Positions 25,414 through 53,126 of a stretch of 53,126 nt of DNA are shown here, one piece after another (within the stretch, counting starts at the first letter, position 1; every line of letters begins with the position of its first letter). Origin of the DNA: Eubacteriales bacterium (GTDB taxonomy: Bacteria; Bacillota; Clostridia; Oscillospirales; CAG-272); NCBI GenBank assembly GCA_051867915.1, contig JBJDZJ010000096.1, positions 1 through 53,126 on the forward strand, written 5' to 3'. The notes beneath the pieces are model-generated. The model had not been told where the DNA came from and did no database searches. It was given only the letters and a program-made list of their open reading frames with translations. A program made the position numbers and the translations under genes.

Positions 25414-27867
25414 ATGCGAATGATCGGAAAAAAACCTCTGATTCTCCTGATGGCAGTCTGTCTGATTCTGCCGACTCTGGCCTCCTGTCGGACGGCTGAA
25501 AAAAGTCCCGAAGATACCGAAGCGTCGGACATCAGCACCTCATTTACCCCAAATCCCGACAATGTGACCCCGGAAGTGACGGTGCCTCCCGTATCGGAGC
25601 AAACCTCCCCTGACGGAAAGGCAAAGGTGATTTATGCGGTCAGCGGCCCCGGCGGAACGCTGGACGGAAAGACCGAGCAGACGCCCGGCGCCTCCGGAAC
25701 CTCCGAGGTGAAGGCGGTCGCCGATGTGGGCTACTGCTTCAAAAGCTGGTCGGACGGTCTGACCGAGATCACCCGTAAGGGCGACACTTCCTCGGACGGC
25801 GTGGAAAAGACCATTTATGCCGTTTTCGAACCCGAATATCTGGAAATGCCGGTAATCAGCATTACCACCGAAACCGGAGAGGATGTAGACCCCTGGATCG
25901 GAAATCAGGTTTACATAGGTGCCACTCTGTCGATTACCAACTGCCCGGCGGTGAATGTCCTGACCGATATTACCATGCAGATGAGGGGACGGGGCAATTT
26001 TTCATGGCATGATGTAGATAAGAAGTCCTACAAGCTCAAGCTCACCGAATCGCAGAAACTGCTGGGACTCGGCGAGGGCAAATCCAAGAGCTGGTGCCTG
26101 ATCGCCAATCACTGCGATCAGTCCCTGATGCGCAACTATCTGACCTATCAGCTTTGCAGAGGTCTGTCTGGGCTTGACTGGGCGCCCGACTGCACCAATG
26201 TGGAGGTCTATCTCAACGGTCAGTACCGAGGGGTCTATCTGTTGGTGGAGTCCATTAAGGTGGATGAACACCGTGTGGCCGTCAGCGAAGATGTGGAGTC
26301 CGGAACCGACATCGGATACCTGCTTCAGATGACCAACAACAACGATGAGGCATACCATTTCAAATCCAACGGCTTCAATTTTGATGTCAAGAGCGACCTG
26401 TCGGCAAACCCCAATCAGGCGGAACAACAGCTGAACTATATCCGCACCTATGTGAACCAATGCTGGACTGCCGTCATGGGCGGCGATCAGGAAGAAATCG
26501 AGGCGCTGTTGGACCTTGATTCGGTGATTGACAGCTATCTGGTGGAGGAATTCAACAAGAACCTGGATGTGGGCTATGACAGCTTCTTTCTGTATAAGGA
26601 TACAGGCGGAAAACTGCATTTCGGACCGGTCTGGGACTTCGACCTTGCCTTCGGAAATTCCAACGAACACGGTTGCGAATACGCCGAAGGGCTGTATATC
26701 GGTGTCGATTATTGCAATCACTACCATTCCAACGAATGGTATACCTATCTCATGAGTTATGACTGGTTCCGTGAAAAGGTTGCACAGCGCTGGAAAAGCG
26801 AAGAAGTTCAGACGGTTTTCGGCGGAATTTCCGAACTGGCAACAAAGACCGCACAGGAAAACTACAATTCTTTCTGCCGCAATTTCAAACTGTGGGAAAT
26901 CTTCGGTCAGAAGATCAACCGGGAAACCTATCTGATTACCTCGCTGAAGAACTATACCGAGCATTATCAGTATCTTGCCAAATGGATCGGCGACCGTTTC
27001 GATTGGCTGAACGGCTTCATCGGTACGGATGAATACAATAAAGGGTATCTGACCGGATGGGAAATTGATATTCCCGATATCCCCGATGTCCCTGTAATCA
27101 TCATACCGGAGTTTTCGGGCGGAAACGGAACGCCTGACAGCCCCTATCTGATCTCCAACGAGCAGGATTTTGTGTCCTTCACGCAGATGCTGTATTCGAC
27201 CGATTTCAGCGGAATGTATTTCCGGCAGACTGCCGATCTGAATCTCTCGTCTATCAACGACTATAACGGCATCGGTTCCTCCGGATCCTTTGCCGGAGTC
27301 TATGACGGGGGAGGACATTCCATTACCGCACTTATCACATCGTTGGACGGCTGCATTTTTCCCTATGTCAGCGGACTGGTGATGAATCTCATCACCAAGG
27401 GGGCGGTGGTGAATAACAATCAGGCGGCGGGAATCTGCCGTTCGGTCCGTCAGGGAGGCGCACTGATCAACTGTGCGTCCTTCATGGATGTGACTTCCAC
27501 CGGCGGAAACGCAGGCGGTCTGTCCCCCTCGACTCAGGGAGGCGATGACAGCCCCGCTATTCTGAACTGCTTCTTTTTCGGAACGGTGAACGGCTTTGAG
27601 CAGTCCAGCCCCATCAATTGCTGGCTCTCGGGACGGTTTGGAAACTTTGCCTATATCTATCACTGTGAGACGCTTGACAACGAATTTCTGACTGTCAGCG
27701 ATGCTGACATTTCCCTGACGGCAGATCAGATGAAGAACGAGCTTGCCGATCTGCTCAACGCAAACATCAGCTCCCTTACCGATGTGCTTGCTCGCTACGG
27801 CGTGGGGACCGATGCGCTCTGCCGGTGGGTCGGAAGCGGCGACTGCCCCGTTATGCAGGCAAAATAA
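25414..27867 (+). CDS. CotH-family lipoprotein with List-Bact repeat and GLUG-like C-terminal domain (paralog 2)
   Basis: Lipobox 'PTLASC'. 'VADVGYCFKSWSDG'. CotH blocks: 'MQMRGRGNFSWH', 'KKSYKLKLTESQKLLG', 'WCLIANHCDQSLMRNY', 'VEVYLNGQYRGVYLLVES', 'FGPVWDFDLAFGN'. 'GGNGTPDSPYLISNEQDFVSF...FAGVYDGGGHSITA...NAGGLSPS'. Same domain order as 20583..23189. Confidence 0.8.
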   Translation: MRMIGKKPLILLMAVCLILPTLASCRTAEKSPEDTEASDISTSFTPNPDNVTPEVTVPPVSEQTSPDGKAKVIYAVSGPGGTLDGKTEQTPGASGTSEVKAVADVGYCFKSWSDGLTEITRKGDTSSDGVEKTIYAVFEPEYLEMPVISITTETGEDVDPWIGNQVYIGATLSITNCPAVNVLTDITMQMRGRGNFSWHDVDKKSYKLKLTESQKLLGLGEGKSKSWCLIANHCDQSLMRNYLTYQLCRGLSGLDWAPDCTNVEVYLNGQYRGVYLLVESIKVDEHRVAVSEDVESGTDIGYLLQMTNNNDEAYHFKSNGFNFDVKSDLSANPNQAEQQLNYIRTYVNQCWTAVMGGDQEEIEALLDLDSVIDSYLVEEFNKNLDVGYDSFFLYKDTGGKLHFGPVWDFDLAFGNSNEHGCEYAEGLYIGVDYCNHYHSNEWYTYLMSYDWFREKVAQRWKSEEVQTVFGGISELATKTAQENYNSFCRNFKLWEIFGQKINRETYLITSLKNYTEHYQYLAKWIGDRFDWLNGFIGTDEYNKGYLTGWEIDIPDIPDVPVIIIPEFSGGNGTPDSPYLISNEQDFVSFTQMLYSTDFSGMYFRQTADLNLSSINDYNGIGSSGSFAGVYDGGGHSITALITSLDGCIFPYVSGLVMNLITKGAVVNNNQAAGICRSVRQGGALINCASFMDVTSTGGNAGGLSPSTQGGDDSPAILNCFFFGTVNGFEQSSPINCWLSGRFGNFAYIYHCETLDNEFLTVSDADISLTADQMKNELADLLNANISSLTDVLARYGVGTDALCRWVGSGDCPVMQAK

Positions 27868-33537: not shown

Positions 33538-33557
33538 TCTTTTTTGTGTGCTATAAT
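33529..33557 (+). promoter_or_regulatory. Consensus promoter TTGACA-17 nt-TATAAT (extended TGCTATAAT) for bioY
   Basis: -35 at 33529-33534, -10 at 33552-33557. Confidence 0.7.
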
Positions 33558-33826
33558 AGTCGCATGAAGAACATCGAAGCCGAATAACACCGAGCGACTA
33601 TTAGGAAAATAGATCTTGCCGGCTTGCGCCGTCATTTTCCCTGAGAATTCAGGGAAAAACGATCCATTTTCCAAAGCTGGATGCTATGATAGTCGCATGA
33701 AGAACATCGAAGCCGAATAACACCGAGCGACTATTAGGAAAATAGATCTTGCCGGCTTGCGCCGTCATTTTCCCTGAGAATTCAGGGAAAAACGATCCAT
33801 TTTCCAAAGCCGGATGTTATAATAGG
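33549..33826 (+). repeat. Tandem direct repeat, 2 x 133 bp plus about 12 bp of a third unit, forming the bioY leader
   Basis: Copy 1 is 33549-33681 and copy 2 is 33682-33814. By eye they differ at only two positions: TATAAT versus TATGAT, and AAGCTGG versus AAGCCGG. Each unit starts with TGNTATRAT. Confidence 0.9.
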
Positions 33827-33864: not shown

Positions 33865-34407
33865 ATGAGTCTGAAAAAACACAAATCCGTTTTAAATCTG
33901 GTGTACATTGCCCTGTTCGCCGCACTGATTGCCGTATGCAGCTGGATCACCTTCCCCATCAATCTGGTTCCCATTACCCTGCAAACCATGGCGGTCTGTA
34001 TTGCCGCAGGAATGTTGGGCTGTTGGAGGGGAATCTGTTCGGTCGCCGTTTATCTGGCACTGGGCGCAGTGGGACTACCTGTATTCGCAGGCTTCAAAGG
34101 CGGCATCGGTAGTCTGACCGGCGCCACGGGAGGCTATCTGGTGGGCTTTTTGCTGACCGCCCTGATTGTGGGACTGGCAGTGGATCTGTTCGGACGGAAA
34201 TGGTTCGTTCTGGCAATTTCCATGGTTCTGGGTATTGCGGTCTGCTACCTTTTCGGAACGGCATGGTTCATGATTCTGATGGGAAGCAAATACACCCTGG
34301 GCGCTGCTCTCGGAATGTGTGTGATTCCCTTCATCATCCCCGATCTTTGCAAGATCGCCATCGCTACCGTTCTGTGCAACAGGGTATATAAGATTGTGAA
34401 GATTTGA
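33865..34407 (+). CDS. bioY: Biotin transporter S-component BioY
   Basis: 'LVYIALFAALIAVCSWITFPI..VPITLQTMAVCIAAGMLG...GPTGGYLVGFLL'-type pattern, seen here as 'LTGATGGYLVGFLLTAL'. 180 aa with 5-6 TM helices. Confidence 0.9.
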   Translation: MSLKKHKSVLNLVYIALFAALIAVCSWITFPINLVPITLQTMAVCIAAGMLGCWRGICSVAVYLALGAVGLPVFAGFKGGIGSLTGATGGYLVGFLLTALIVGLAVDLFGRKWFVLAISMVLGIAVCYLFGTAWFMILMGSKYTLGAALGMCVIPFIIPDLCKIAIATVLCNRVYKIVKI

Positions 34408-43068: not shown

Positions 43069-43125
43069 GCGGAATTACACAAAAAGTCATGTCATAAAAG
43101 GCATATTCGTATGCTTTTTTGGTAC

Positions 43126-43154
43126 TTTACAAACGCATAATTGTGTGTTAAAAT
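43126..43154 (+). promoter_or_regulatory. Promoter TTTACA-17 nt-TAAAAT for adhE
   Basis: -35 at 43126-43131, -10 at 43149-43154; about 80 nt upstream of ATG 43236. Confidence 0.5.
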
Positions 43155-43235
43155 ATTAACAGACAAGAGAACAGAAGCAAAAAGACGGGCATAAGAATGT
43201 CCGATCAACACAAATATACGGAGGAGAAGAGAGTT

Positions 43236-45851
43236 ATGGAGAACAAGTACACGATTGTCGATAGCGTTGAGTCCTTTGAGATTGCCCTTGCAAAGGTCAG
43301 AGAGGCTCAGAAAATCTATGCGACCTATACCCAGGAGCAGGTTGATAAGATTTTCTATGCGGCAAGCGTAGCGGCCAATCAGGCGAGAATTCCCCTTGCC
43401 AAGATGGCAGTTGCCGAGACCGGAATGGGCGTTGCAGAGGATAAGGTGATCAAGAATCATTTCGCATCCGAGTATATCTACAATTACTACAAGGATATGA
43501 AGACCTGCGGCATCATCGAAGAGGATAAGGCGTTCGGCATCACCAAGATTGCAGAGCCGATCGGTGTTGTTGCTGCCGTCATCCCCACCACCAATCCCAC
43601 CTCTACCGCCATCTTCAAGACCCTGATCTCCCTGAAGACCCGGAACGGCATCCTGATTTCCCCCCATCCCCGTGCCAAGAAGTGCACCATCGAGGCGGCG
43701 AAGATCGTTCTTGAGGCGGCAGTCAAGGCAGGCGCACCCGAGGGGCTGATCAGCTGGATTGATGTGCCCTCTCTTGAACTGACCAACCTGCTTATGAAGG
43801 AAGCCGACATTATTCTGGCAACCGGTGGCCCCGGAATGGTCAAGGCGGCTTATTCCTCCGGAACTCCCGCATTGGGCGTCGGCGCAGGCAATACCCCTGC
43901 CATCATCGACAGTACCGCCAATGTTAAGGTAGCCGTCAACTCGGTGATCCACTCCAAGACCTTCGATAACGGCATGATCTGTGCATCCGAGCAGTCGGTC
44001 ATCGTCCTTCCCGAAGTTTATGACGCTGTAAAAGCAGAATTTGCCGCAAGAGGCTGTTATTTCCTGAACCCCGAGGAGACCGAGAAGGTTCGCAAGACCA
44101 TCATTATCAACGGCTCCGTCAATGCAAAGATCGTCGGACAGACCGCCTATACCATTGCCAAGATCGCCGGCGTTGAGGTTCCCGAAAGAACCAAGATCCT
44201 CATCGGCGAGGTGGAATCGGTGGACATTTCCGAGGAGTTCGCTCACGAGAAGCTGTCTCCCGTTCTGGCCATGTATCATGCAGACGATTTTGCGGACGCT
44301 CTTGCCAAGGCAGAGCATCTGGTTCACGACGGCGGCATGGGTCACACCGCCTGCCTCTACTGCGATGCAGTCTCCGAGCGTGCCAAGATCGACGAGTTCG
44401 CTCTCCGTATGCCCAACTGCCGTATGCTGATCAACACCCCTGCATCTCAGGGTGCCATCGGCGACATTTACAACTTCAAGTTCGCTCCCTCCCTGACGCT
44501 GGGATGCGGATCTTACGGCAGAAACAGCGTTTCCGAAAATGTGGGCTGCAAGCATCTTCTGAACATCAAGACGCTTGCCGAGAGGAGAGAAAATATGCTT
44601 TGGTTCCGTGCGCCTGAAAAGGTTTATATCAAGAAGGGCTGCCTGCCCGTTGCACTCGACGAGCTGAAGGCCGTCATGGGCAAGAAGAGAGCCTTCATCG
44701 TCACCGACTCCTTCCTGTACAACAACGGTTACACCAAGCCCATCGAGTCCAAGCTGGATGATATGGGTATCATGCACACCACCTTCTCCAATGTTGCTCC
44801 CGACCCCTCCCTTGCCTGCGCTAAGGAAGGTGCGGCTCTTATGAGCGCATTCAAGCCCGATACCATCATCGCCATCGGCGGCGGTTCTGCAATGGATGCC
44901 GCAAAGATCATGTGGGTTCTCTATGAACATCCCGAAGTTGACTTCTTCGATATGGCAATGCGCTTCATGGACATCCGCAAGCGTGTCTATACCTTCCCCA
45001 AGATGGGCGAAAAGGCATATTTCATCGCCATCCCCACCTCCGCAGGTACCGGCTCCGAGGTAACTCCCTTTGCGGTTATCACCGATCAGGATACCGGCGT
45101 GAAGTATCCTCTTGCCGACTATGAGCTGATGCCCAACATGGCAATTGTGGATGCAGACATGATGATGTCCGCTCCCAAGGGTCTGACCAGTGCATCGGGT
45201 ATCGACGCTGTTTCCCACGACCTTGAGGCCATCGCATCGGTAATGGCAACCGATTATACCGACGGTCTGGCTAAGCAGTCGCTGAAGATGATCTTCGACT
45301 ACCTGCCCGCCGCATATGACAACGGTCCTCACGATCCCGTTGCCCGTGAGAAGATGGCAAATGCCGCAACCATGGCAGGTATGGCGTTCGCAAACGCATT
45401 CCTGGGTGTCTGCCACTCCATGGCGCACAAGCTGGGTGCCTTCCATCATCTGCCCCACGGTGTTGCCAATGCGCTGATGCTGGATGAGGTCATCCGCTTC
45501 AACTCGGCAGAAGTCCCCACCAAGATGGGTACCTTCCCCCAGTACGAATATCCTCACACCAAGGCGAAGTATGCGGAAGTTGCTACCTACCTGGGACTTT
45601 CCGGCAATACCGACGATGAGAAGGTGGAGAGCCTGATCGCCGCTCTCGACGAGCTGAAGGCAAAGATCGGCATCAAGCCCACCATCAAGGATTATGTTCC
45701 CGATGAGGCAGACTTCCTGGCGCGTCTGGACGCCATGGTCGAACAGGCATTTGACGATCAGTGCACAGGCGCCAACCCCCGTTACCCTCTCATGAGTGAG
45801 ATCAAGCAAATGTACCTGAACGCTTACTACGGAACTCACGAGGAAGTATAA
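43236..45851 (+). CDS. adhE: Bifunctional acetaldehyde-CoA / alcohol dehydrogenase AdhE
   Basis: ORF 43197..45851. The N-terminal ALDH half and C-terminal Fe-ADH half ('GGGSAMDAAK', 'HSMAHKLGAFHHLPHG', 'FDDQCTGANPRYPL') are unmistakable. ATG 43236 is preferred, with GGAGGAG 9 nt upstream. Confidence 0.95.
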   Translation: MENKYTIVDSVESFEIALAKVREAQKIYATYTQEQVDKIFYAASVAANQARIPLAKMAVAETGMGVAEDKVIKNHFASEYIYNYYKDMKTCGIIEEDKAFGITKIAEPIGVVAAVIPTTNPTSTAIFKTLISLKTRNGILISPHPRAKKCTIEAAKIVLEAAVKAGAPEGLISWIDVPSLELTNLLMKEADIILATGGPGMVKAAYSSGTPALGVGAGNTPAIIDSTANVKVAVNSVIHSKTFDNGMICASEQSVIVLPEVYDAVKAEFAARGCYFLNPEETEKVRKTIIINGSVNAKIVGQTAYTIAKIAGVEVPERTKILIGEVESVDISEEFAHEKLSPVLAMYHADDFADALAKAEHLVHDGGMGHTACLYCDAVSERAKIDEFALRMPNCRMLINTPASQGAIGDIYNFKFAPSLTLGCGSYGRNSVSENVGCKHLLNIKTLAERRENMLWFRAPEKVYIKKGCLPVALDELKAVMGKKRAFIVTDSFLYNNGYTKPIESKLDDMGIMHTTFSNVAPDPSLACAKEGAALMSAFKPDTIIAIGGGSAMDAAKIMWVLYEHPEVDFFDMAMRFMDIRKRVYTFPKMGEKAYFIAIPTSAGTGSEVTPFAVITDQDTGVKYPLADYELMPNMAIVDADMMMSAPKGLTSASGIDAVSHDLEAIASVMATDYTDGLAKQSLKMIFDYLPAAYDNGPHDPVAREKMANAATMAGMAFANAFLGVCHSMAHKLGAFHHLPHGVANALMLDEVIRFNSAEVPTKMGTFPQYEYPHTKAKYAEVATYLGLSGNTDDEKVESLIAALDELKAKIGIKPTIKDYVPDEADFLARLDAMVEQAFDDQCTGANPRYPLMSEIKQMYLNAYYGTHEEV

Positions 45852-46233
45852 CTGATTTTATGGCAAAAGGAAGGGGGGTGCGCCGCGCCAACCCCCGCTA
45901 CCCCTTGATGAGCGAAATCAAGTAAATGTACCTGAACGCATACTATGGCACTCACGAGGAAGTATAACTGATTTTATGGCAAAAGGAAGGGGGTTGCGCC
46001 GCGCCAACCCCCGCTACCCCCTGATGAGCGAAATCAAGCAGATGTACCTGAACGCTTACTACGGCAAGCATGAGGAAGTATAAAAATAACAAAAATCAGC
46101 GACCCGGTCAAGGGTCGCTGATTTTTGAAAATAAGGAAGGGGGTTGCGCCGCGCCAACCCCCGTTACCCTCTCATGAGCGAAATCAAGCAAATGTATCTG
46201 AACGCTTACTATGGCACTCACGAGAAAGTGTAA
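45852..46233 (+). repeat. Three tandem, diverged copies (A, B, C) of the last ~80 bp of adhE, each preceded by an AAGGAAGGGGG(T/G)TGCGCCGC hairpin arm
   Basis: Copy A is 45869-45967 with an in-frame TAA at 45923. Copy B is 45985-46083 and is intact; with ATG 45976 it gives a 35-codon ORF MAKGRGLRRANPRYPLMSEIKQMYLNAYYGKHEEV. Copy C is 46135-46233. The stop codons of the native end, A and B lie exactly 116 bp apart (45851, 45967, 46083). Confidence 0.9.
46091..46126 (+). terminator. Intrinsic terminator after adhE-tail copy B
   Basis: AAAAATCAGCGACCC-GGTCAA-GGGTCGCTGATTTTT. Confidence 0.7.
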
Positions 46234-46501
46234 TTGATAATCTCCAAAAACAGCGGGTGAAGACCGTTGTTTTTAGGGCAAGATGAAGGGGCAAAGGGAA
46301 GCCCTGTTGCCGCCGCAAGATGAGCCTCATGGTGCCGATAGTTATTGTTTTCAACTCGCAGTGAGCTTACACAACTGCGAGTTGCTTTTGTTGACAACAA
46401 AAAGTGGTTGCTTTTTTGGTAAAAATAGTAGATAATCAAGATGAAAACAATTATGTTATTGTGCAAATAAGAAAAATAAATGCAGATAAAGGAGAGAACA
46501 T

Positions 46502-48085
46502 ATGGAGCTTAAATTGCAGATTGCCAAACTTCGTTCGGGAGCGGGCATGTCGCAGGAAGAACTTGCGGCACTGTTGGGCGTTTCAAGGCAGGCTGTTCAG
46601 AAATGGGAAAGTGGAGGAGCGGTTCCGAGACTTGATCATCTTATAAAAATGGCAAAGCTTTTCAGGGTTACTCTTGATTCGCTTGTGCTTGAAGGAAACA
46701 ACAGAATAACCGAGGAAATGATGCACGGAAGCAATATAGCTCCCGATTATGAGCACATGTGCTACTGGGAATCATATCCTCAGAACCTTTTGAATGAGTA
46801 CAGACAGTCAATCGAAGAGGGTAAAAACATATCAATATATGAGAAGCTTTTCAAAGCCGTGTATGAAATGCCGGCAGGAGAGCATAAAGAGAAAATGGCA
46901 GATCAGCTGTTTGATATAGTCTGCTCGGCAGGTACGGTTGAAAATTATCAGTATACCGAACCGTCGGGATATGACGAGATAAGGAAACTGTCGTCCGGCA
47001 CAACTGCCGAGATGAAAATGCCGTCCGATCACGAACTCAAGAAGAAGATAAAGGGCGCATGGCTCGGCAGAATATGCGGATGCCTGCTCGGCAAGCCGAT
47101 CGAAGGCATCCATACACCCGAATTGAAGAAACTTTTGAAAAGCTCGGATAACTATCCGCTTCACAGGTATATAACCACCGATGATGTGACGCCCGAACTT
47201 CAGAATGAGATATCGTACAGGGTGAGAAGAGACAGCCTTGTGGGTGCAATAAGCTGTGCACCTGTCGATGACGATACAAACTATACGGTTCTTGCATCTG
47301 TGATAGTTGACCGCTTCGGCAGAGATTTCAAATCCTCTGATGTTGCCAATTCGTGGGTGTGGTATCAGGGAAAAGATGCATACTGTACGGCAGAACGTGT
47401 TGCATTCAAGAATTTCGTTATGGGATACCGTCCACCGATGTCGGCTGTATACAAAAATGTTTACAGGGAATGGATAGGAGCACAGATAAGAGGGGATTAT
47501 TTCGGATATATAAATCCATGTGATCCTGCATCGGCGGCTGAAATGGCATGGCGCGATGCGTCAATATCGCATGTGAAAAACGGAATATACGGCGAAATGT
47601 TCGCATCGGCGATGATTGCGGCGGCAGCAGGCTGTAATGATATGGTTTCGGTCGTGAATGAAGGTCTTGCACAGATTCCGGTATCGTCGAGACTGTATGA
47701 ATCGGTCGGTTCGATTTTAAGCGGTTATCAGAACCGAGTTTCCAAAAGTGAGGCGTTTGCCAAAATTCATGCCGAATATGATGAATTTACAGATCACGGA
47801 TGGTGTCATACAATACCGAATGCAATGATTGTTGCGGCATCTCTCCTTTACGGTGGCGGAGATTATACCAAATCAATATGTATGGCTGTCGAAACAGGGT
47901 TTGATACAGACTGTAACGGCGCAACTGTCGGATCGGTGCTTGGAATGATGAACGGTGCCGATTCCATAGGGGCACAATGGACTGCTCCGATAAACGGGAC
48001 GCTTGATACATCTATATTCGGAGTCGGAAAGGTTAAGGTCGACGATATGGTCGAACGAACAGTAAAGCATATAAAAGCCAAATAG
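46502..48085 (+). CDS. Fusion of an XRE-type HTH DNA-binding domain with an ADP-ribosylglycohydrolase (ARH/DraG-fold) domain
   Basis: N-terminus 'LRSGAGMSQEELAALLGVSRQAVQKWESGGAVPRLDHLIKMAKLFRVTLDSLV'. ARH-type motifs 'IKGAWLGRICGCLLGKPIEG', 'PVDDDTNYTVLA', 'GFDTDCNGATVGSVLGMMNG'. AAGGAGAG Shine-Dalgarno. Confidence 0.75.
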   Translation: MELKLQIAKLRSGAGMSQEELAALLGVSRQAVQKWESGGAVPRLDHLIKMAKLFRVTLDSLVLEGNNRITEEMMHGSNIAPDYEHMCYWESYPQNLLNEYRQSIEEGKNISIYEKLFKAVYEMPAGEHKEKMADQLFDIVCSAGTVENYQYTEPSGYDEIRKLSSGTTAEMKMPSDHELKKKIKGAWLGRICGCLLGKPIEGIHTPELKKLLKSSDNYPLHRYITTDDVTPELQNEISYRVRRDSLVGAISCAPVDDDTNYTVLASVIVDRFGRDFKSSDVANSWVWYQGKDAYCTAERVAFKNFVMGYRPPMSAVYKNVYREWIGAQIRGDYFGYINPCDPASAAEMAWRDASISHVKNGIYGEMFASAMIAAAAGCNDMVSVVNEGLAQIPVSSRLYESVGSILSGYQNRVSKSEAFAKIHAEYDEFTDHGWCHTIPNAMIVAASLLYGGGDYTKSICMAVETGFDTDCNGATVGSVLGMMNGADSIGAQWTAPINGTLDTSIFGVGKVKVDDMVERTVKHIKAK

Positions 48086-48086
48086 G

Positions 48087-48135
48087 CGATTGTAAAACTG
48101 CGTTTTACAATCGGAGTGCGCAACGCACGGTTTTT
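48087..48135 (+). terminator. Two consecutive hairpins, the second with a T-run, after the HTH-ARH gene
   Basis: CGATTGTAAAAC-TGC-GTTTTACAATCG (48087-48113), then GTGCG-CAA-CGCAC followed by GGTTTTT (48116-48135). Confidence 0.6.
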
Positions 48136-48359
48136 CACGCACTTATCGTCTTCGGGTTTGGCAGCTTCAATCGGTGCGTGGACTCGCTTTGCTCGTCTTT
48201 GCGGTGTTTTTACTTATATTCGTCATGTTTACAATCGCCTCTTATACAACAAAAACGGATAAAAATCAGTAGTATATATGTTAAAAAAGCATTCTGCCGA
48301 TTGGCTTTTTTGACTTTTTTCAATCGGCCATCTAAAAGCCAAATTAAAGGAGAACCGTA

Positions 48360-48485
48360 ATGGATAAAAAACAAATTTATGTTGCCCCCGAAATTGATAT
48401 CTGTCTTGTCGAAAGCTCTGATATTGTGCTGATTTCAACTGTAGACCGGGACGGAACCCTGGGAAAAATCGGATATGATGATTAA
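48360..48485 (+). CDS. Unannotated 41-codon sORF (MDKKQIYVAPEIDICLVESSDIVLISTVDRDGTLGKIGYDD)
   Basis: AAGGAG (48347-48352) lies 7 nt before ATG 48360. The TAA at 48483-48485 is 18 nt before the ATG of the secreted ARH gene. Too short for the ORF track. Paralogous to the sORF at 51699..51812. Confidence 0.5.
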   Translation: MDKKQIYVAPEIDICLVESSDIVLISTVDRDGTLGKIGYDD

Positions 48486-48503
48486 AAAAGAGAGGTGCTT
48501 AAA

Positions 48504-51320
48504 ATGATGAAAAGAATAATTTCCGCTGTTTCGGTTGCCCTTGCACTGCTGTTGTGCCTCTCTGTTTTTCCGCTGACATTTGTTTTAAATGCAGAGGAAA
48601 ATAGATCTGCCGAAGATGTCATGCTTGTTGCCCCTTCTGCCGATCAGACAGCAAAGGGTTTCTGCCGCACCGATGTTAATCCGGAAGACGGTTCTAAAAA
48701 AGATCTTTGCATAATAATGGAAGCAAAAAGGGAAGATCTGAAGAAATATGAAAGCTGTGAGTTTTCAATAAGCTTTTCAGCCGGAGACGAAACGGTAAAA
48801 AGCAAAAATTACAGAGCGAAAATCGCATATAAATCAATAGTTGACAACCAGAGAAAATATATTGCAGCCGACGGTTGCGGACTTATTGGATGTGTAATAA
48901 CCGGAATCCCGTCATCGGTTACATCGTTTGATGCAATCGCTTGCCTTAAGAGCAGTGATAATGTCGAAACAAAAATAAATCTCGGCTCCGCAATTCTTTC
49001 AAAAGGAACGGTAACACTCACACGGGATGAAATTTATGATAAACTTCTCGGCGGCTGGCTCGGACAGATGATAGGAGTTTCATGGGGGGCATCGACCGAA
49101 TTCGGATATTGCGGAGAAATTATTCCCGAAAACAGAATACCGAAGTGGAAGCCGTCAATGATAAACGATGCTTTTGCACAGGACGATCTTTATGTCGAAA
49201 TCCCGTTCATGGAAGTGATGAAGAAAAACGGTGTTGATTGCGATGTCAACCTTATTGCCGATAATTTTGCAAAATCGGAGTTCCCGCTTTGGCATGCAAA
49301 CTATCAGGCAAGACTGAATCTTCAGAACGGCATAAAGTATCCCGATTCGGGCAGTCCGAAATACAATATACATGCAGATGACATAGATTGGCAGATAGAA
49401 GCCGATTTCCTCGGAATGATTTATCCCGGACTTGTCAACAGAGCGGCGGAACGTTCATTTGAACTCGGTCACATCATGAATTACGGAGACGGAGTGTACG
49501 GAGGCGTTTTTGTAAGCGCACTTCATTCGGCAGCTTATACCGCAAGAACTCTTGATGAGGTCATTCAGGCAGGACTTGATGCCATTCCGGACGGGACTCT
49601 TTTCAAGGAAACGCTTCTTGATGTTGTAAACGGCTATAATAACGGCGAGAGTTGGGAGGATGTCTGGAAAACGCTCGAAAACAAGTGGGCGGATACCGAT
49701 AAATGCACAGAGTGTGCAGGTCCTATCAATATAGATGCAAAGCTGAACAGCGCATATGTGCTGATCGGACTTCTTTACGGTGCCGGAAACCTTGAAAAAA
49801 CAATAATCATATCAACAAGATGCGGTCAGGACAGTGACTGCAATCCGTCGACGGCGGCATCGGTTCTTTGTAATTTTCTCGGTGCGTCCGCAATTCCCGA
49901 TAAATATAAATCGGCTGTTGACATGGTCAATACAAAATTCCAGACTACCGATTATTCTCTCGGAGAGATAATTGACCTTTCAATGCAGCTTATAAGTGAA
50001 ACGGTGTCGGCATCCGGCGGAAGGGTAAAAGAAAATGATTATACTCTCGTTGTGTCGGATGAAATAAATGCAACTCCTTTTGAACAGTGGGAAGGCGGAA
50101 TCGGAGTACAGCTTTTGGTAAATGTTACAAGCGGGTGCGCAGTAAATATCAGATTCGAATCGGCAGGAGCCGAAAAGATCAAAAAAGTAACATATGATAT
50201 GGGTGACGGCTTCGTAACAAGCGAAAATCTTTGCATGTACGGTTATTCGAAACCCGGAACATACAGGATTACCTGTGAGGTAGAGGGAGAAGAAGGAACA
50301 AAACTCACGCTTGAAACTACCATAACGCTTGAATCGGAGCTTTCGGGAATAAAATATAATCCGATTTGTTCTGTCGATGCGCCTTTGGGAAGCGGAAATA
50401 AAGATATGCATGTTTTCTGCGACGGTGTAATTCCTTCAACAACAGATACATCTTCCGCATTGCAGTACGATACCTATTGCGGCGGAGGAGAGATGGACAG
50501 CCTTTATGTCGGAATGGAATTTGACAAAACAGTTTCGCTGACAGGAGTTAAGTTTACCGAGGGTCTGCATTTCTGGGACGGTGGATGGTTTGACGGAGTT
50601 CCGAATGTAGAGCTTCTCATAGACGGTAAATGGGTTGAAGTTGCAACATATAACGACGGAAAGGAATATCCTGATAAAAACAGCATGACTGCACACGGAT
50701 TGCCGTTTGAAAGCTATGTGTTCAGATTTGAAAAAACCACAGAGTGTGACGGGGTGCGCTTTAAGGGCAAACCCGGAGGAAGTGCACATTTTATAAGTGT
50801 TGCCGAAATAACACCGTTTACCAATGACAACAGTGTGACAGTAAAGCAAAAAACTGCAATAATCTGTTCGGTGTCGGCACCGTTGGGCGGAGGATCGAAA
50901 GATATAGGCGTTATTTGTGACGGAATTGTTCCGGATGCTTCATCTGCGAACGATTTGATGCAGTACGACACCTATATCGGAGAAACTGCTGATGCATTTG
51001 CATATGTCGGATATCTGTTTGTGGCAGAACGAAATCTTTCGGGAATTGTGTTTGCGGAAGGCAATCATTTCAATAACGGCGGATGGTTCAAAAACGGCGA
51101 CATAAAAGTACAGATTCTTACCGACGAAGGATGGGTGGATGTGCTGTGCGACGGCATTGACCGATATCCTGTCGGTGACAGCAGGGATGTTTTCGGATCC
51201 GGCTACCAGAGCTATACCTTCAGGTTGAAGGAACCGGTATCTTGCAGAGGAATACGCATTGCCGGAACAACCGGAGGATGCGGTTTCATAAGTGTAAGCG
51301 AGTTGACTGTTATCGACTGA
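48504..51320 (+). CDS. Secreted multidomain protein: unknown N-domain, ADP-ribosylglycohydrolase-fold domain, PKD-like domain and two discoidin/CBM-like repeats
   Basis: ORF 48495..51320. ATG 48504 has AGAGAGG 8 nt upstream. Signal peptide MMKRIISAVSVALALLLCLSVFPLTFVLNA. ARH motifs 'LLGGWLGQMIGVSWGASTEFG', 'AQDDLYVEIPFM', 'RCGQDSDCNPSTAASVLCNFLG'. PKD-like 'VTYDMGDGFVTSENLCMYGYSKPGTYRITCEV'. Duplicated 'ICSV(D/S)APLG(S/G)G(N/S)KD..V.CDG(V/I)(I/V)P...QYDTY.G' modules. Confidence 0.75.
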   Translation: MMKRIISAVSVALALLLCLSVFPLTFVLNAEENRSAEDVMLVAPSADQTAKGFCRTDVNPEDGSKKDLCIIMEAKREDLKKYESCEFSISFSAGDETVKSKNYRAKIAYKSIVDNQRKYIAADGCGLIGCVITGIPSSVTSFDAIACLKSSDNVETKINLGSAILSKGTVTLTRDEIYDKLLGGWLGQMIGVSWGASTEFGYCGEIIPENRIPKWKPSMINDAFAQDDLYVEIPFMEVMKKNGVDCDVNLIADNFAKSEFPLWHANYQARLNLQNGIKYPDSGSPKYNIHADDIDWQIEADFLGMIYPGLVNRAAERSFELGHIMNYGDGVYGGVFVSALHSAAYTARTLDEVIQAGLDAIPDGTLFKETLLDVVNGYNNGESWEDVWKTLENKWADTDKCTECAGPINIDAKLNSAYVLIGLLYGAGNLEKTIIISTRCGQDSDCNPSTAASVLCNFLGASAIPDKYKSAVDMVNTKFQTTDYSLGEIIDLSMQLISETVSASGGRVKENDYTLVVSDEINATPFEQWEGGIGVQLLVNVTSGCAVNIRFESAGAEKIKKVTYDMGDGFVTSENLCMYGYSKPGTYRITCEVEGEEGTKLTLETTITLESELSGIKYNPICSVDAPLGSGNKDMHVFCDGVIPSTTDTSSALQYDTYCGGGEMDSLYVGMEFDKTVSLTGVKFTEGLHFWDGGWFDGVPNVELLIDGKWVEVATYNDGKEYPDKNSMTAHGLPFESYVFRFEKTTECDGVRFKGKPGGSAHFISVAEITPFTNDNSVTVKQKTAIICSVSAPLGGGSKDIGVICDGIVPDASSANDLMQYDTYIGETADAFAYVGYLFVAERNLSGIVFAEGNHFNNGGWFKNGDIKVQILTDEGWVDVLCDGIDRYPVGDSRDVFGSGYQSYTFRLKEPVSCRGIRIAGTTGGCGFISVSELTVID

Positions 51321-51355
51321 ATACCGATTTGCGATATCCGTTTATACAGACAAAT

Positions 51356-51398
51356 ATACTCCGAATGACAAATCTGTGTCGTTCGGAGTATGGTTTTT
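51356..51398 (+). terminator. Intrinsic terminator of the secreted-ARH gene
   Basis: ATACTCCGAATGACA (51356-51370) pairs with TGTCGTTCGGAGTAT (51377-51391), followed by GGTTTTT. Confidence 0.7.
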
Positions 51399-51564
51399 AC
51401 TGTTTTGTTTTTAAAGGCAGAGGCTGTCCGCAATCTTCGCAAAGCCGAAGATGTCGAGTTTTTCTCCGCATATGTTCGGATCAAATCCGCAGGAATAAAC
51501 CGCCTGCAAGATATCTTGCTTGGAAAATGCCGGAAATGATGACGAGATGCTTTTACGAGAGTTG

Positions 51565-51648
51565 TTGCGCCGCGCCAACCCCCGTTACCCTCTCATGAGC
51601 GAAATCAAGCAGATGTACCTGAATGCTTACTACGGCAAGCATAGAAAG
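51565..51648 (+). repeat. Fourth displaced copy (D) of the adhE 3' end
   Basis: 'TTGCGCCGCGCCAACCCCCGTTACCCTCTCATGAGCGAAATCAAGCAGATGTACCTGAATGCTTACTACGGCAAGCAT'. After it there is an apparent 1-nt deletion relative to copies B and C. Copy D lacks the GGGGG hairpin arm and is followed directly by the terminator at 51652-51683. Confidence 0.9.
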
Positions 51649-51651
51649 CTT

Positions 51652-51683
51652 CAAATCCCCCACTTTTGACAGTGGGGGATTTG
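51652..51683. terminator. Bidirectional terminator
   Basis: CAAATCCCCCAC-TTTTGACA-GTGGGGGATTTG, then AGATATTTTT. Lies between adhE-tail copy D (plus strand) and sORF 51699..51812 (minus strand). Confidence 0.7.
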
Positions 51684-51698
51684 AGATATTTTTATCTA

Positions 51699-51812
51699 TT
51701 ACCAATTAGGGTTCCAGGGGATGTCCTCCACTTCGCCGGATGTAAGCAGAACATCGGCGCTGTCGGTCAGGAGGATCTCCGCCTTCGGAGATTCGTAGAG
51801 TTCCTTTTCCAT
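51699..51812 (-). CDS. Unannotated 37-codon sORF (MEKELYESPKAEILLTDSADVLLTSGEVEDIPWNPNW)
   Basis: GGAGG (51821-51825, minus strand) lies 8 nt before ATG 51812, which is 14 nt after the LRR-gene stop. TAA at 51699-51701. Shares M-(D/E)-K-x(1-2)-(I/L)-Y-x2-P-x6-7-(S)-x-D-(I/V)-(V/L)-L-x-S with the sORF at 48360..48485. Confidence 0.5.
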   Translation of the reverse strand: MEKELYESPKAEILLTDSADVLLTSGEVEDIPWNPNW

Positions 51813-51826
51813 CTTTCTTACCTCCT

Positions 51827-53126
51827 TTACTGCTGGGGTGCGACGGCGTCGTAGTCGAACTGCGTTGCGGCGATCACAGAACCGTCGGCGGAAGTGACGG
51901 TCAGGGTCGCTGTGTCAAATCCGTCCGCCGGAATGTCGGTAACGACAAAGCCGAACAGGGTGCAGGACTCGCCGGCAACATAGGTCTCTCCTGCCGCAAT
52001 CAGACTGGTATAGATCTTCATGGTTTTGCCTTCCACATAGTCGGTATCAACCGTACGGGTGATGGTGTAGGGCGTTGCATTCCCGTCCTTGTAGAAGTTC
52101 AGCGTGACCTTGTCGCCTGCCCTGACAGCGTCATTCTCGGCAAGGATGATGCGCAGATCAAAGGAACCGTCCTCGTGCGTGCGGTTGCTGGAATAGGCGG
52201 AGAGATCGCCTTCTGCAACGGAGATGGTGTTGTAGGTAGTACCGTTACCCGCTTCCTCTTCGGTGATTTCGGCACGGTCAAACCCGGGCAGTGCAACGAA
52301 GGGATTGCCGTTTACATTGGCATAGTCTTCGGCAGTCGATCCGGCGAAGCCGTAGATGGTGGTGGCAGAGGGAATGGAATAATTGCTAATAGAACAAATG
52401 GGGTTATAAACTGTAATGCTGTCTAAGTTGGTACAGCCATCGAATGCCCCATAGCCAATCTGGGTAACACTGTCGGGAATGGTGACACTTGTCAAACCGG
52501 AGCAGCCATAGAATGAACTAAAGCTAATAGAGGTGACGCTGTCGGGGATGGTGATACTCGTCAAACCGGAACAGTTATAGAATGCAGAACCGCCAATCAC
52601 GGTGATGCTGTTGGAGATAGTGATGCTCGTCAAACCTGTACAGTCTTCGAATGCCGCATAGCCAATCTCGGAGACGCTGTCGGGAATGGTGATGCTCGTC
52701 AAGCCGGAACAGCCATAGAATGCAGAGTCGCCAATAGATGTAACGCTACCGTCCGTCGGAATGATACTGTTTTGGCATCCGAGAATCAATTTCTTGTTTT
52801 CGGTATCAATGAGACAGTTTCCGCTACTGTGGTAGGTTGTGTTGCCTTCCGATACGGTGATACCCGTCAAGCTGGAGCAACCATGGAATGCGAAATCACC
52901 AATCACGGTAACGCTGCCCGGAATGGTGATACTCGCCAAGCCGGAACAGTTAGAGAATGCAGAATCGCCAATAGAGGTAACACTGTCGGGAATGGTGATA
53001 CTCGTCAGACCTGCACAGTCTGCGAATGCACCAAAGCCAATTTCGGTGACACTACCGTCCGTCGGAATGACACTGTTTTGGCATCCGAGAATCAATTTCT
53101 TGTTTTCGGTATCAATGAGACAGTTT
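51827..53126 (-). CDS. BspA-type leucine-rich-repeat surface protein (C-terminal part; the 5' end lies beyond the window)
   Basis: The frame is open to the window edge. ~23-aa LRRs of the type 'IPDSVTSIGDSAFSNCSGLTSITIP' are repeated. A 306-bp super-repeat is present: 52746-52820 is nearly identical to 53052-53126. The C-terminal ~150 aa are non-LRR. Confidence 0.8.
   Translation of the reverse strand, partial: NCLIDTENKKLILGCQNSVIPTDGSVTEIGFGAFADCAGLTSITIPDSVTSIGDSAFSNCSGLASITIPGSVTVIGDFAFHGCSSLTGITVSEGNTTYHSSGNCLIDTENKKLILGCQNSIIPTDGSVTSIGDSAFYGCSGLTSITIPDSVSEIGYAAFEDCTGLTSITISNSITVIGGSAFYNCSGLTSITIPDSVTSISFSSFYGCSGLTSVTIPDSVTQIGYGAFDGCTNLDSITVYNPICSISNYSIPSATTIYGFAGSTAEDYANVNGNPFVALPGFDRAEITEEEAGNGTTYNTISVAEGDLSAYSSNRTHEDGSFDLRIILAENDAVRAGDKVTLNFYKDGNATPYTITRTVDTDYVEGKTMKIYTSLIAAGETYVAGESCTLFGFVVTDIPADGFDTATLTVTSADGSVIAATQFDYDAVAPQQ

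Follow-up and report, generated by a model that had tools for sequence, protein, structure and literature searches.

How does a single bacterial gene come to be followed by a row of copies of its own 3′ end? The question is raised by a 53,126-nt stretch of DNA (the window) from an uncultured gut-type Clostridia bacterium, in which the 3′-terminal 81 nt of adhE, an alcohol/aldehyde dehydrogenase gene, are found again at four places downstream of the gene, termed A, B, C and D. We put at roughly one in two the probability that this array is an ordered series of retired adhE 3′ ends, standing on one ancestral partial duplication and grown by homologous exchange. Ordinary recombination, and not a dedicated mobile element, most likely displaced the former ends one after another.

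The long open reading frame that holds adhE opens at 43197; the ATG at 43236 corresponds to the protein start in relatives and gives a product of 871 aa. This product scores 1377 bits against the NCBIfam equivalog NF010378 (cut-off 951) and is 98% identical to P0001 (871 aa). The gene and its array comprise the following features, with L204 denoting the nearest related species.

43236..45851, + strand: adhE, bifunctional acetaldehyde-CoA/alcohol dehydrogenase, 871 aa (Pfam Aldedh, Fe-ADH and ADH_Fe_C)
45769..45851, + strand: working tail of the present gene, its final 27 codons and the stop (identity to the extra copies begins at GCGCC, 45769)
45852..45884, + strand: linker 1, in which the right half of a terminator linker of T2 type (CTGATTTT...) is followed by the junction block AAAAGGAAGGGGGGTGCGCC, from the linker alignment
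45885..45967, + strand: copy A, retired tail with a nonsense codon (TAA, 45923-45925)
45968..46000, + strand: linker 2, unlike linker 1 at 1 of 35 positions, with the palindrome GGGGGTTGCGCCGCGCCAACCCCC at 45989-46012
46001..46083, + strand: copy B, retired tail, intact, ending GKHEEV
46090..46127, no strand assigned: terminator T2, a bidirectional hairpin (-28.4 kcal/mol, z -10)
46128..46150, + strand: junction block GAAAATAAGGAAGGGGGTTGCGCC before C (palindrome 46139-46162)
46151..46233, + strand: copy C, retired tail, intact, ending GTHEKV
46246..46274, + strand: terminator T1 (-13.5 kcal/mol), the ortholog of L204's adhE terminator (84% identity over 125 nt)
46282..46291, + strand: left remnant of a junction block (GATGAAGGGG), split from its TTGCGCC by an insert, from the alignment with L204
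51565..51573, + strand: right remnant of that junction block (TTGCGCCGC), directly 5′ of D
51572..51661, + strand: copy D, 1 nt short after CAT and lacking a stop; its ortholog in L204 is the distal copy
51650..51685, no strand assigned: terminator after D (-25.2 kcal/mol)

A preliminary description had listed four extra copies of the last ~27 codons of adhE, and all are present. The native unit (45769-45884) is followed by copies at steps of +116, +116, +150 and +5421 nt, and Tandem Repeats Finder returns a period of 116 (2.7 copies, 90% matches), in line with the 116-bp spacing reported for the native end, A and B. Neighbours among the native end, A, B and C are 35-69 nt apart, while 5.3 kb lie between C (81 nt) and D (about 70 nt). 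The stop codon in A, the 1-nt loss in D, the intact 35-codon frame of B (45976-46083, 35 aa) and the terminators after B and D were all seen as described, and a further terminator follows C at about 46246-46274. Homology had been placed from GCC AAC CCC onwards; the boundary is sharp, but identity begins 2 nt earlier.

All linkers align as one unit, consisting of the tail, a terminator and then a junction block of ~25 nt, TGAAAA..GG.A.GGGGTTGCRCCGY, which is conserved in three species. Since the linkers are all homologous, the repeat is one ancestral unit, of which the 116-nt units lack 34 nt of the left terminator arm. Linker 1 contains no terminator and has an exact match of 44 nt to the next unit. 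The 17-nt linker noted earlier is indeed common to the native end and A but, taken together with the prefix discussed below, is the right half of a B-type terminator linker rather than a sequence without relation to it. T2 is the first terminator 3′ of the adhE stop, with A and B lying between the two.

As the window is a MAG contig and two 116-nt units share a 44-nt exact stretch, the array might consist of one real extra copy and metagenome strain variants unrolled by the assembler; contigs L207 and L208 of a related species end inside the array, which indicates that the repeat troubles assemblers. We regard such an artefact as highly improbable. Every unit contains unique k-mers, and unique sequence joins B, T2, C, T1, the insert and D. 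Exact repeats shared between units reach 44-48 nt at most, so that the array is resolvable at k >= 49 and an assembly loop is unlikely. Prefixed tails also occur in independent NCBI and JGI assemblies from three species, leaving at most the number of 116-nt units uncertain.

The differences between the tails bear directly on their origin. Among copies, pS is 0.31-0.58 and pN 0-0.07, whereas pS over the whole gene relative to L204 is 0.34. Of 18 variable columns, 14 are synonymous, and most are C/T, G/A or C/G changes at third positions. Because these differences are nearly all synonymous and of the size seen in adhE between species, the copies appear to have been working ends of diverged alleles, as had been proposed. 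Divergence of this kind is incompatible with decay in place; neutral copies would accumulate mostly non-synonymous change, and imported alleles are therefore required. The mosaic variation reported earlier is likewise visible as breakpoints within tails. The native end and A differ at 10 positions, all within the first 63 nt, and are then identical over 44 nt; copy B differs by 3 nt from L204's working tail and by 10 nt from that of the window itself.

In several respects the array resembles tandem arrays formed by unequal recombination, with head-to-tail units and one common junction, copy-number variation and chimeric units among conspecifics, and near-identical linkers beside diverged cores. 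It differs in that its units diverge synonymously at the between-species level. Duplication in situ cannot produce such divergence, which argues that diverged alleles were imported and the old ends kept in order. Amplification of a 116-bp unit followed by gene conversion, one of three explanations first offered, thus comes closest to the evidence but has to be supplemented by imported diverged alleles.

Extra tails occur in a clade of three known species, comprising the window species, L204 and the species sampled as L205-L208, and the evidence from this clade consists of short-read assemblies. The two related species (adhE DNA 86% and 75% identical) share the layout of tail, terminator, junction block and further tail, with linkers of 35-95 nt that carry no cargo in any of the three species. 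The next relative, L209 (86% protein identity), has a single tail, as have 80 other species. Copy C together with T1 aligns with the working end of L204, making C its positional equivalent as judged by the downstream terminator. D aligns with the distal copy of L204, stop loss included (12675-12775, 86% identity over 101 nt), and this alignment runs 19 nt past the match to the working tail of L204. New ends were therefore added adjoining the gene. The conspecific samples L208, L205 and L206 have one, two and three extra copies, respectively, in short-read assemblies, and copy 2 of L206 and a linker of L208 are chimeras of neighbouring units. The distal copies lack a full unit: that of L204 has neither a stop nor T1, and a plain head-to-tail duplication would thus need a later change.

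Every extra copy is preceded by a prefix foreign to adhE, TGCGCCGC, which the native end lacks. In the form (T/G)TGCGCCGC it precedes 4 of 4 extra copies, and TGCGCCGCGCCAACCCCCG has four exact matches, only at A, B, C and D, where 0.02 are expected by chance. The 8-bp hairpin described across the breakpoint exists but is longer, with the inverted repeat GGGGGTTGCGC-C-GCGCCAACCCCC comprising 8 bp, a bulged C and 3 bp (-15.9 kcal/mol). Its left arm, reported for A-C, is present there, though with one mismatch in A (GGGGGGTG); D lacks the arm because the 5.3-kb insert sits exactly at this point. The palindrome's inner part (TGCAC...GTGCC) belongs to adhE itself, and the final 9-11 nt of the junction DNA repeat the beginning of the tail in reverse complement. 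The native end reads TGCAC-AG-G(C/T)GCC and the prefixed sites TGC(G/A)C-C-G(C/T)GCC, placing the mismatch exactly at the palindrome centre.

We propose that the junction may be a footprint left when replication switched template or snapped back at the adhE quasi-palindrome GCAC-AG-GTGC. It would date from a single duplication in the ancestor shared by the window species, L204 and L205-L208, a small Clostridia clade; the duplicated segment would have begun at the Cys-Thr-Gly codons (TGCACAGG(C/T)GCC) and included both the stop and the terminator. A single template-switching event can produce perfect stems together with multibase 'compensatory' changes (PMC8794818), and models of duplication and triplication include inverted-repeat junctions that are trimmed afterwards (PMC4689423). 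Like known template-switch junctions (PMC8794818, PMC7202029, PMC4689423), that of the array carries a short reverse-complement copy at the duplication join, is centred on a quasi-palindrome already present in the gene, and shows one 'compensatory' pair between lineages. A clustered change also perfects another hairpin in a relative, where 5 nt of the L205 distal copy convert GTACCTGAACGCATAC into the better hairpin GTATTGCAGCGCATAC. Unlike those junctions, the inverted piece is just 9-11 nt long and is preceded by ~15 nt of conserved DNA, and no inverted middle copy survives, so that the origin is read from the footprint only. Kugelberg and co-workers reportedly described tandem inversion duplication in Salmonella in 2010.

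The sharp boundary and a non-adhE prefix identical in every displaced tail would also be left by serial site-specific integration, in which an integrase with its gene elsewhere in the genome uses the 24-bp palindrome plus the tail as its attachment site. Each element would bring a surrogate tail and terminator (attL) and leave the old tail behind its right-end arm (attR); the element bodies would since have been nearly all deleted, or the units would be cargo-less, cis-mobilisable mini-elements. We consider this reading unlikely, even though the 8-bp/8-bp inverted repeat with its 8-bp spacer has the layout of a recombinase core site, each unit has its own terminator, the newest units lie nearest the gene and accessory DNA separates C from D. 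The ssrA islands of Dehalococcoides are alike in that serial site-specific integration has yielded a conserved non-gene motif, of 15 bp, just 5′ of each displaced gene end (PMC3146451). They also share with the array repeated 3′ ends of one conserved gene downstream of that gene, newest copies adjoining it, accessory genes between some repeats and the lack of integration genes from some intervals. The adhE array differs from them in having no integrase in the available sequence, in the brevity of three of its four intervals (35-69 nt, made up of the junction block and a whole or half terminator), in its 81-nt, mosaic repeats diverged to the species level, and in that its sole island lies within the motif instead of being bounded by it. 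Tandem accretion with gene-end direct repeats is known from ICESt1/CIME elements at the 3′ end of fda in Streptococcus thermophilus.

Several observations weigh against such integration. No Phage_integrase, Resolvase, Recombinase or transposase domain occurs in any large open reading frame of the 53-kb contig, and no recombinase gene lies within ~10 kb on either side of adhE in L204 and L205. The units are free of cargo in all three species, and the tails are mosaic with internal breakpoints. The palindrome centre is AG at the native end and C at prefixed sites, whereas the overlap used by a tyrosine recombinase must be identical, and circles of 116 nt would be too small to be plausible substrates. 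An element carrying the GGGGGTTGCGCC|GCGCCAACCCCC arm with the tail was not found among phage, plasmid and IMG/VR collections; IMG/VR loci with the tail all have full adhE context, phage and plasmid matches are whole adhE genes, and a metagenome scan with an 18-mer gave chance matches only. What stands of the serial-insertion proposal is that D is the oldest end. The island itself is not supported as the inserting element, as L204 and L205-L208 lack it and nevertheless carry prefixed extra tails, in substance the observation named beforehand as refuting an integration scar.

A putative unlinked site-specific recombinase might instead swap cargo-less gene-end cassettes (tail, terminator and arm) at the palindrome, or, in a variant, 3′-UTR RNA or AdhE-tail peptides might be under selection; we judge this decidedly unlikely. 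The same grade applies to its extension, in which that recombinase would occasionally capture genes such as the ADP-ribosylglycohydrolase pair of the insert, creating an integron-like platform in a Clostridia housekeeping gene. If a recombinase does act on the palindrome, the array would represent a new kind of gene-end cassette system.

An integron or attC cluster was rejected on the absence of a tyrosine recombinase from the contig and on the adjacency of the GTT and AAC boxes, an architecture judged by eye. Shared with attC clusters are complementary unit ends (GCGCCAAC... and ...GTTGCGC), a bulged base, newest units closest to the fixed end and the right junction of the insert at G|TTGCGCC. 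The differences are that the contig has no IntI gene, the boxes do not lie at opposite ends of a folded site of 60-140 nt, the 'left box' belongs to adhE coding sequence that is universally conserved and the insert does not start with TT. To our knowledge, integrons are essentially unknown in Firmicutes. A diversity-generating retroelement was likewise rejected, the differences not being adenine-specific and no reverse transcriptase domain occurring in the 53-kb contig (nor in ~10 kb around adhE in L204 and L205).

Retention of the extra units for a function is, in our estimate, very unlikely. As RNA in the 3′ UTR, the hairpin and a long-range pairing of GGGGGUUGCGCC with upstream GGCGCCAACCCCC would affect mRNA stability or termination; as peptides, candidate small open reading frames (TTG-Arg-Arg-ANPRYP...) would mimic the C-terminal helix of AdhE and modulate its assembly. 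Consistent with a function, all three species have kept at least one extra copy, A and B precede the first terminator, and an in-frame TTG is conserved, with AAAGGA + 6 nt before it in the window and L204. However, L205 has no Shine-Dalgarno-like sequence before this TTG, and in L204 and L205 a terminator parts the extra units from adhE. The low pN/pS, which would fit a function, can be accounted for just as well if the copies once served as working ends. The copies also decay, by the stop in A, the frameshift in D, the stop loss in L204 and three amino-acid changes in the distal copy of L205, which weakens the earlier suggestion of functional mini-ORFs. In both lineages a hairpin persists at the junction, and one of its pairs has changed in a compensatory manner (CGC/GCG versus CAC/GTG), but a second stem position changed non-compensatorily (G to C opposite C to T). 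Although the array folds better than shuffled sequences (z = -3.8), this signal is trivial given the repeated complementary motifs. No Rfam covariance model matched at E up to 1 in 45500-52000, and nothing in the whole window reached a gathering score.

Returning to retired ends grown by homologous exchange, every genome of the clade had two homologous tails, which homologous recombination could pair out of register; this step is shown in part. Exchange between sister chromosomes would change copy number. With diverged incoming DNA, the second tail of the donor would pair with the first tail of the recipient, installing the donor tail, terminator and junction block beside adhE and shifting the old working end one place downstream. 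We infer that such out-of-register exchange involved foreign DNA; a donor of the B-T2 unit was not found. Orthology suggests that the array began as C-T1-D and then acquired B-T2, after which a unit with a broken terminator would have been gained and doubled, giving A and the current end. The final step would have been an allelic replacement of adhE that ended within the current tail. The retired tails need no present function, and A and B would merely ride in the adhE 3′ UTR. Several observations, the incomplete distal copies among them, sit less easily with this reading: across species the junction block is about as conserved as coding sequence and a hairpin persists there, which could mean selection or a recombinase site instead of a scar, and each of the three known clade species keeps at least one extra copy, although short tandem repeats should be easily lost.

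If the reading of retired ends is correct, the array is a legible fossil record, in order, of former 3′ ends of an essential fermentation gene, each archived with its own terminator and derived from a different diverged allele. One small partial duplication would then turn homologous exchange of a conserved gene into an allele-archiving ratchet. Structures that are generally interpreted as integration scars could in this way arise with no recombinase involved, which would call for caution in island prediction that treats gene-end repeats as att sites. The duplication would also create a soft spot for the landing of foreign genes, of which the window holds one case:

46292..51564, + strand: 5.3-kb insert with two genes (Pfam; alignment with relatives)
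46502-48085: XRE-HTH plus ADP-ribosylglycohydrolase gene (Pfam)
48495-51320: ADP-ribosylglycohydrolase plus PKD gene, truncated relative to homologues (Pfam)

The insert is absent from L204 and L205. It interrupts a junction block, within the left palindrome arm, rather than being bounded by one, and no significant att-like copy is present at its left end (p = 0.3). It was probably added later, by illegitimate recombination in the left arm of the C/D palindrome. The gene pair has counterparts in another chromosomal context in L210-L215, with DNA identities of 79% and 73%.

The region downstream of adhE reads exactly as the preliminary description had given it from sequence alone, with the last 27 codons of the gene (native end) recurring in four extra copies, A to D. 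A repeat search identified a family of 116-nt units, the native one spanning 45769–45884 and the others offset by +116, +116, +150 and +5421 nt, and Tandem Repeats Finder gave a period of 116 (2.7 copies, 90% matches). Each extra copy is preceded by a non-adhE prefix; the 19-mer TGCGCCGCGCCAACCCCCG, specific to the junction, has four occurrences, solely before A, B, C and D (0.02 expected by chance). Two details of the boundary required correction: identity with the resident gene starts at GCGCC (45769) rather than at GCC AAC CCC, and the inverted repeat, first described as an 8-bp hairpin, is GGGGGTTGCGC-C-GCGCCAACCCCC (−15.9 kcal/mol). Downstream of B, C and D come strong terminators (T2 after B, −28.4 kcal/mol; T1 after C, −13.5 kcal/mol; a third after D, −25.2 kcal/mol); the stretch from the adhE stop to T2 has none.

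The gene was identified as adhE by Pfam and the NCBIfam equivalog NF010378. Its relatives start at the equivalent of ATG 43236, yielding 871 aa, and an exact protein look-up with the 884-aa ORF found no match, as that ORF is longer than the called gene of 871 aa. Read-through extension of AdhE was rejected, since a unit length of 116 nt puts the copies in a different frame from adhE. Exact repeats shared between units reach at most 44–48 nt, so the array forms no obvious assembly loop; an assembly artefact, which could at most alter the number of 116-nt units, is highly improbable. DGR, integron and Rfam RNA identities for the array were likewise rejected. Antisense to adhE (43092–45839, minus strand) runs a 915-codon open frame, almost certainly a shadow ORF of this highly constrained gene.

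A single adhE tail, with no second one within 10 kb of the gene, was found in all 80 GTDB species-representative genomes surveyed (AdhE C-termini 79–86% identical). The plain state is seen in L209, an 86% relative, as tail, terminator and convergent gene. Prefixed extra tails are present in both closest relatives. In L204 (GCA_051868045.1; AdhE 98% identical to that of the window, DNA just 86%), the order is working tail, T1, AAAAAGGAAAGGGGTTGCGCCGC and one further tail without a stop. In a second related species (loci L205–L208; AdhE 89%, DNA 75%), units of ~175 nt read tail, terminator, ...AAAATGGT(A/G)CGGGTTGCACCGT, tail, with two extra copies in L205, three in L206 and at least one each in L207 and L208. 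The 5.3-kb, two-gene insert separating C from D is absent from L204 and L205–L208, and no recombinase was found within ~10 kb either side of adhE in these loci.

T1 after C is orthologous to T1 after the L204 working end (84% identity, 125 nt), and an alignment of all linkers shows T2 to be built like T1. After the native end and A, the linkers (35 nt) are what remains of a T2-type linker (CTGATTTT...), namely its right half, with 34 nt of terminator left arm and loop lost. All three species have a block, TGAAAA..GG.A.GGGGTTGCRCCGY, ahead of the tail. Given its homologous linkers and common block, the repeat is a single inherited unit of tail, terminator and junction block rather than a series of unrelated insertions. 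The alignment of D with the distal copy of L204 runs 19 nt past the working-tail match, and both lack the stop; the L204 working end is the counterpart of C and T1. These orthologies indicate that the common ancestor of the window species and L204 had C–T1–block–D, and the proposal that D is the ancestral end gains support from the same alignment. B–T2 and two 116-nt units would have been gained later, on the gene side, in the window lineage; the newest ends thus appear to adjoin adhE, with older ends displaced downstream.

Differences among the five window copies are mostly synonymous, as had been noted (14 of 18 variable columns), with pS of 0.31–0.58 and pN of 0–0.07. Whole-gene adhE pS is 0.34 against L204 and 0.74 against L205. 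Because in-place decay would gather mainly non-synonymous changes at such a distance, the tails probably derive from diverged working adhE alleles, and the pS and pN values agree with the earlier suggestion that each copy was once the working end of an allele. Decay-like changes are confined to a nonsense codon in A and a frameshift in D. Of its 81 positions, B differs at 3 from the L204 working tail and at 10 from the window's own tail. The reported mosaicism is also real, with breakpoints visible within tails: the native end and A differ at 10 positions, every one of them within the first 63 nt, and match fully over the 44 nt that follow, the pattern expected from an allelic replacement of adhE that ended within the tail. 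In the L205–L208 species the first extra copy matches the working tail exactly and the distal copy carries seven changes; the middle copy of L206 is a chimera of these two copies, and the L208 linker unites variants of two L205 linkers. Subject to the limits of short-read assemblies, this variation reflects unequal crossing-over.

Once two tails are present, any homologous exchange across the adhE 3′ end could align them out of register. If the donor is diverged, such an exchange would install its tail, terminator and block and retire the resident end; an exchange of this kind between sister chromosomes would duplicate or delete units. Stacking would require no special enzyme. We assign this mechanism a probability of roughly 0.5. 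Its observed basis is the unit shared by three species, polarity, species-level synonymous divergence, in-tail breakpoints, copy-number variation and the absence of local recombinases.

A site-specific recombinase could instead have accreted gene-end units, which would account for the sharp boundary common to all copies, a palindrome that resembles a core site, and the conserved arm, all as in the ssrA islands of Dehalococcoides. We consider this rather unlikely: no recombinase was found in the contig or within ~10 kb of adhE in the relatives, the units have no cargo, the palindrome centre differs between native and prefixed sites, the tails are mosaic, and no carrier element was found in phage, plasmid and IMG/VR collections. 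Phage or plasmid carriage of the tail was rejected, the IMG/VR matches being host flanks. A metagenome scan with the 18-mer TGCGCCGCGCCAACCCCC, a pattern too short for this use, gave at least 120 chance matches, all lacking a tail, in GC-rich contigs, and a viral-contig scan with the same 18-mer gave three chance matches. MT835503.1 (49 kb, 'Bacteriophage sp.') was dismissed as a phage carrier; it contains a complete bacterial LysR–adhE–kinase–hydrogenase locus with the whole adhE and is probably a misclassified bacterial contig. A prophage on L216, a low-GC Clostridium-like provirus contig, was dismissed as an adhE-targeting element, its large serine recombinase sitting in a Mn-catalase gene and not in adhE. 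There (655–2647), ~400 nt downstream of adhE, the recombinase gene abuts the truncated catalase gene into which the prophage integrated.

A protein-database search with prefix plus tail gave mostly artefactual matches, the exception being a 63-aa ORF of L204 (P0243). Short 'AdhE tail' proteins at four loci (L227, L228, L233 and L234) were rejected as extra tails, reflecting frameshifts, N-gaps and error-prone assemblies. The public collection holds more than 200 short 'AdhE C-terminal' proteins (P0244–P0362); those checked are fragments of ordinary adhE genes, and many begin at the internal Met of ...DAMVEQAFDDQ.

The inner part of the junction palindrome is adhE's own sequence, TGCAC-AG-G(T/C)GCC(A) at the native site versus TGC(A/G)C-C-G(T/C)GCC(A) in the copies. 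The sole new left part, GGG(GG)T, is ACCC(CC) in reverse complement. The lineages differ by one compensatory pair (CGC/GCG versus CAC/GTG) and by a double change that is not compensatory, and L205 permits an alternative-register hairpin (−14.2 kcal/mol). Distal tail copies show a five-base cluster change, from GTACCTGAACGCATAC to the better hairpin GTATTGCAGCGCATAC in L205, which looks like a template-switch (quasi-palindrome) mutation:

Clustered change in distal tail copies
L205 12925–12945; L206 8875–8895 and 9050–9070: TACCTGAAC to TATTGCAGC, giving the better local hairpin GTATTGC-AGC-GCATAC

Template switching yields patches of reverse-complement sequence and 'compensatory' changes made in a single step (PMC8794818, PMC7202029), and duplications or triplications with inverted-repeat junctions, trimmed later, are documented (PMC4689423, citing Salmonella tandem inversion duplication). 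Given these precedents and the reverse-complement patch at the join, we read the prefix as a probable mutational scar of the original duplication join. No adhE homology was seen by eye upstream of the prefix. A tandem-inversion-duplication remnant was rejected, no inverted copy of greater length being seen by eye, as was a remnant of a full tandem adhE paralogue with N-terminus fused to C-terminus, the adhE 5′ UTR and Shine–Dalgarno sequence being unlike the prefix.

A functional RNA or mini-ORF might also explain why units are retained. Such a function, including the idea of mini-ORFs mimicking the AdhE tail, is suggested by units being kept in all three species and by a TTG with a Shine–Dalgarno-like motif; it is weakened by the decay of several copies and by the missing motif in L205, and we regard a function of either kind as quite improbable.

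Homology with L204 stops after GAAGGGG (46291) and starts again with TTGCGCC (51565), so the 5.3 kb interrupts the left arm of the palindrome at the C/D junction. That position appears to contradict an element bounded by C and D; the insert looks like a fragment put in by illegitimate insertion at a fragile palindrome.

Genes of the 5.3-kb insert (Pfam)
46502–48085: XRE-HTH and ADP-ribosylglycohydrolase gene
48495–51320: ADP-ribosylglycohydrolase and PKD gene

The homologous pair at loci L210–L215 (79% and 73% DNA identity) lies between unrelated genes, and the second insert gene is truncated (941 aa versus 1387 aa). The large partner protein of such pairs combines ADP-ribosylglycohydrolase and PKD (plus LamG and esterase); the regulator-like XRE-HTH–ADP-ribosylglycohydrolase fusion belongs to a very large family (>8000 matches at E <1e-20). 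The sole PADLOC match was to the HTH domain of the island regulator. At the left end of the insert, a degenerate att copy was not significant (p = 0.3). This end has a second terminator-like hairpin (46352–46384, −17.3 kcal/mol), followed at 46391–46425, within the L210-homologous stretch, by a good TTGACA...TGgTAAAAT promoter for the HTH-ADP-ribosylglycohydrolase gene.

The adhE array resembles att-repeat arrays but differs from them in recombinase, overlap identity and attP carrier; it also resembles ordinary tandem arrays, from which it departs as regards divergence in situ. As far as can be seen, it is a recombinase-free stack of retired gene ends, and that it hides a real gene-end cassette system is unlikely. 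It is a clear example for teaching and a caution to island callers.

The window is an entire contig (53,126 bp) whose remaining gene content is ordinary and chromosomal (LysR, BirA, ThyX, BioY, glycoside hydrolases and CotH proteins); it contains no integrase, resolvase, transposase or reverse transcriptase, no tRNA genes and no Rfam matches. Immediately upstream of bioY (33865–34407), a near-perfect tandem duplication at 33549–33825 (133 nt × 2.1, 97–98% identical) is the second recent small one in the contig; a small hairpin and a box like that of a promoter (TGCTATAAT/TGCTATGAT) are present in each copy, and the matching intergenic space of L204 spans only ~150 nt. A BspA-type leucine-rich-repeat protein gene (51827–53126, minus strand) reaches the contig end, and its 69-nt DNA repeats probably caused the break. 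A GH5 cellulase gene is flanked by two large CotH-kinase-domain proteins (20583–23189 and 25414–27867).
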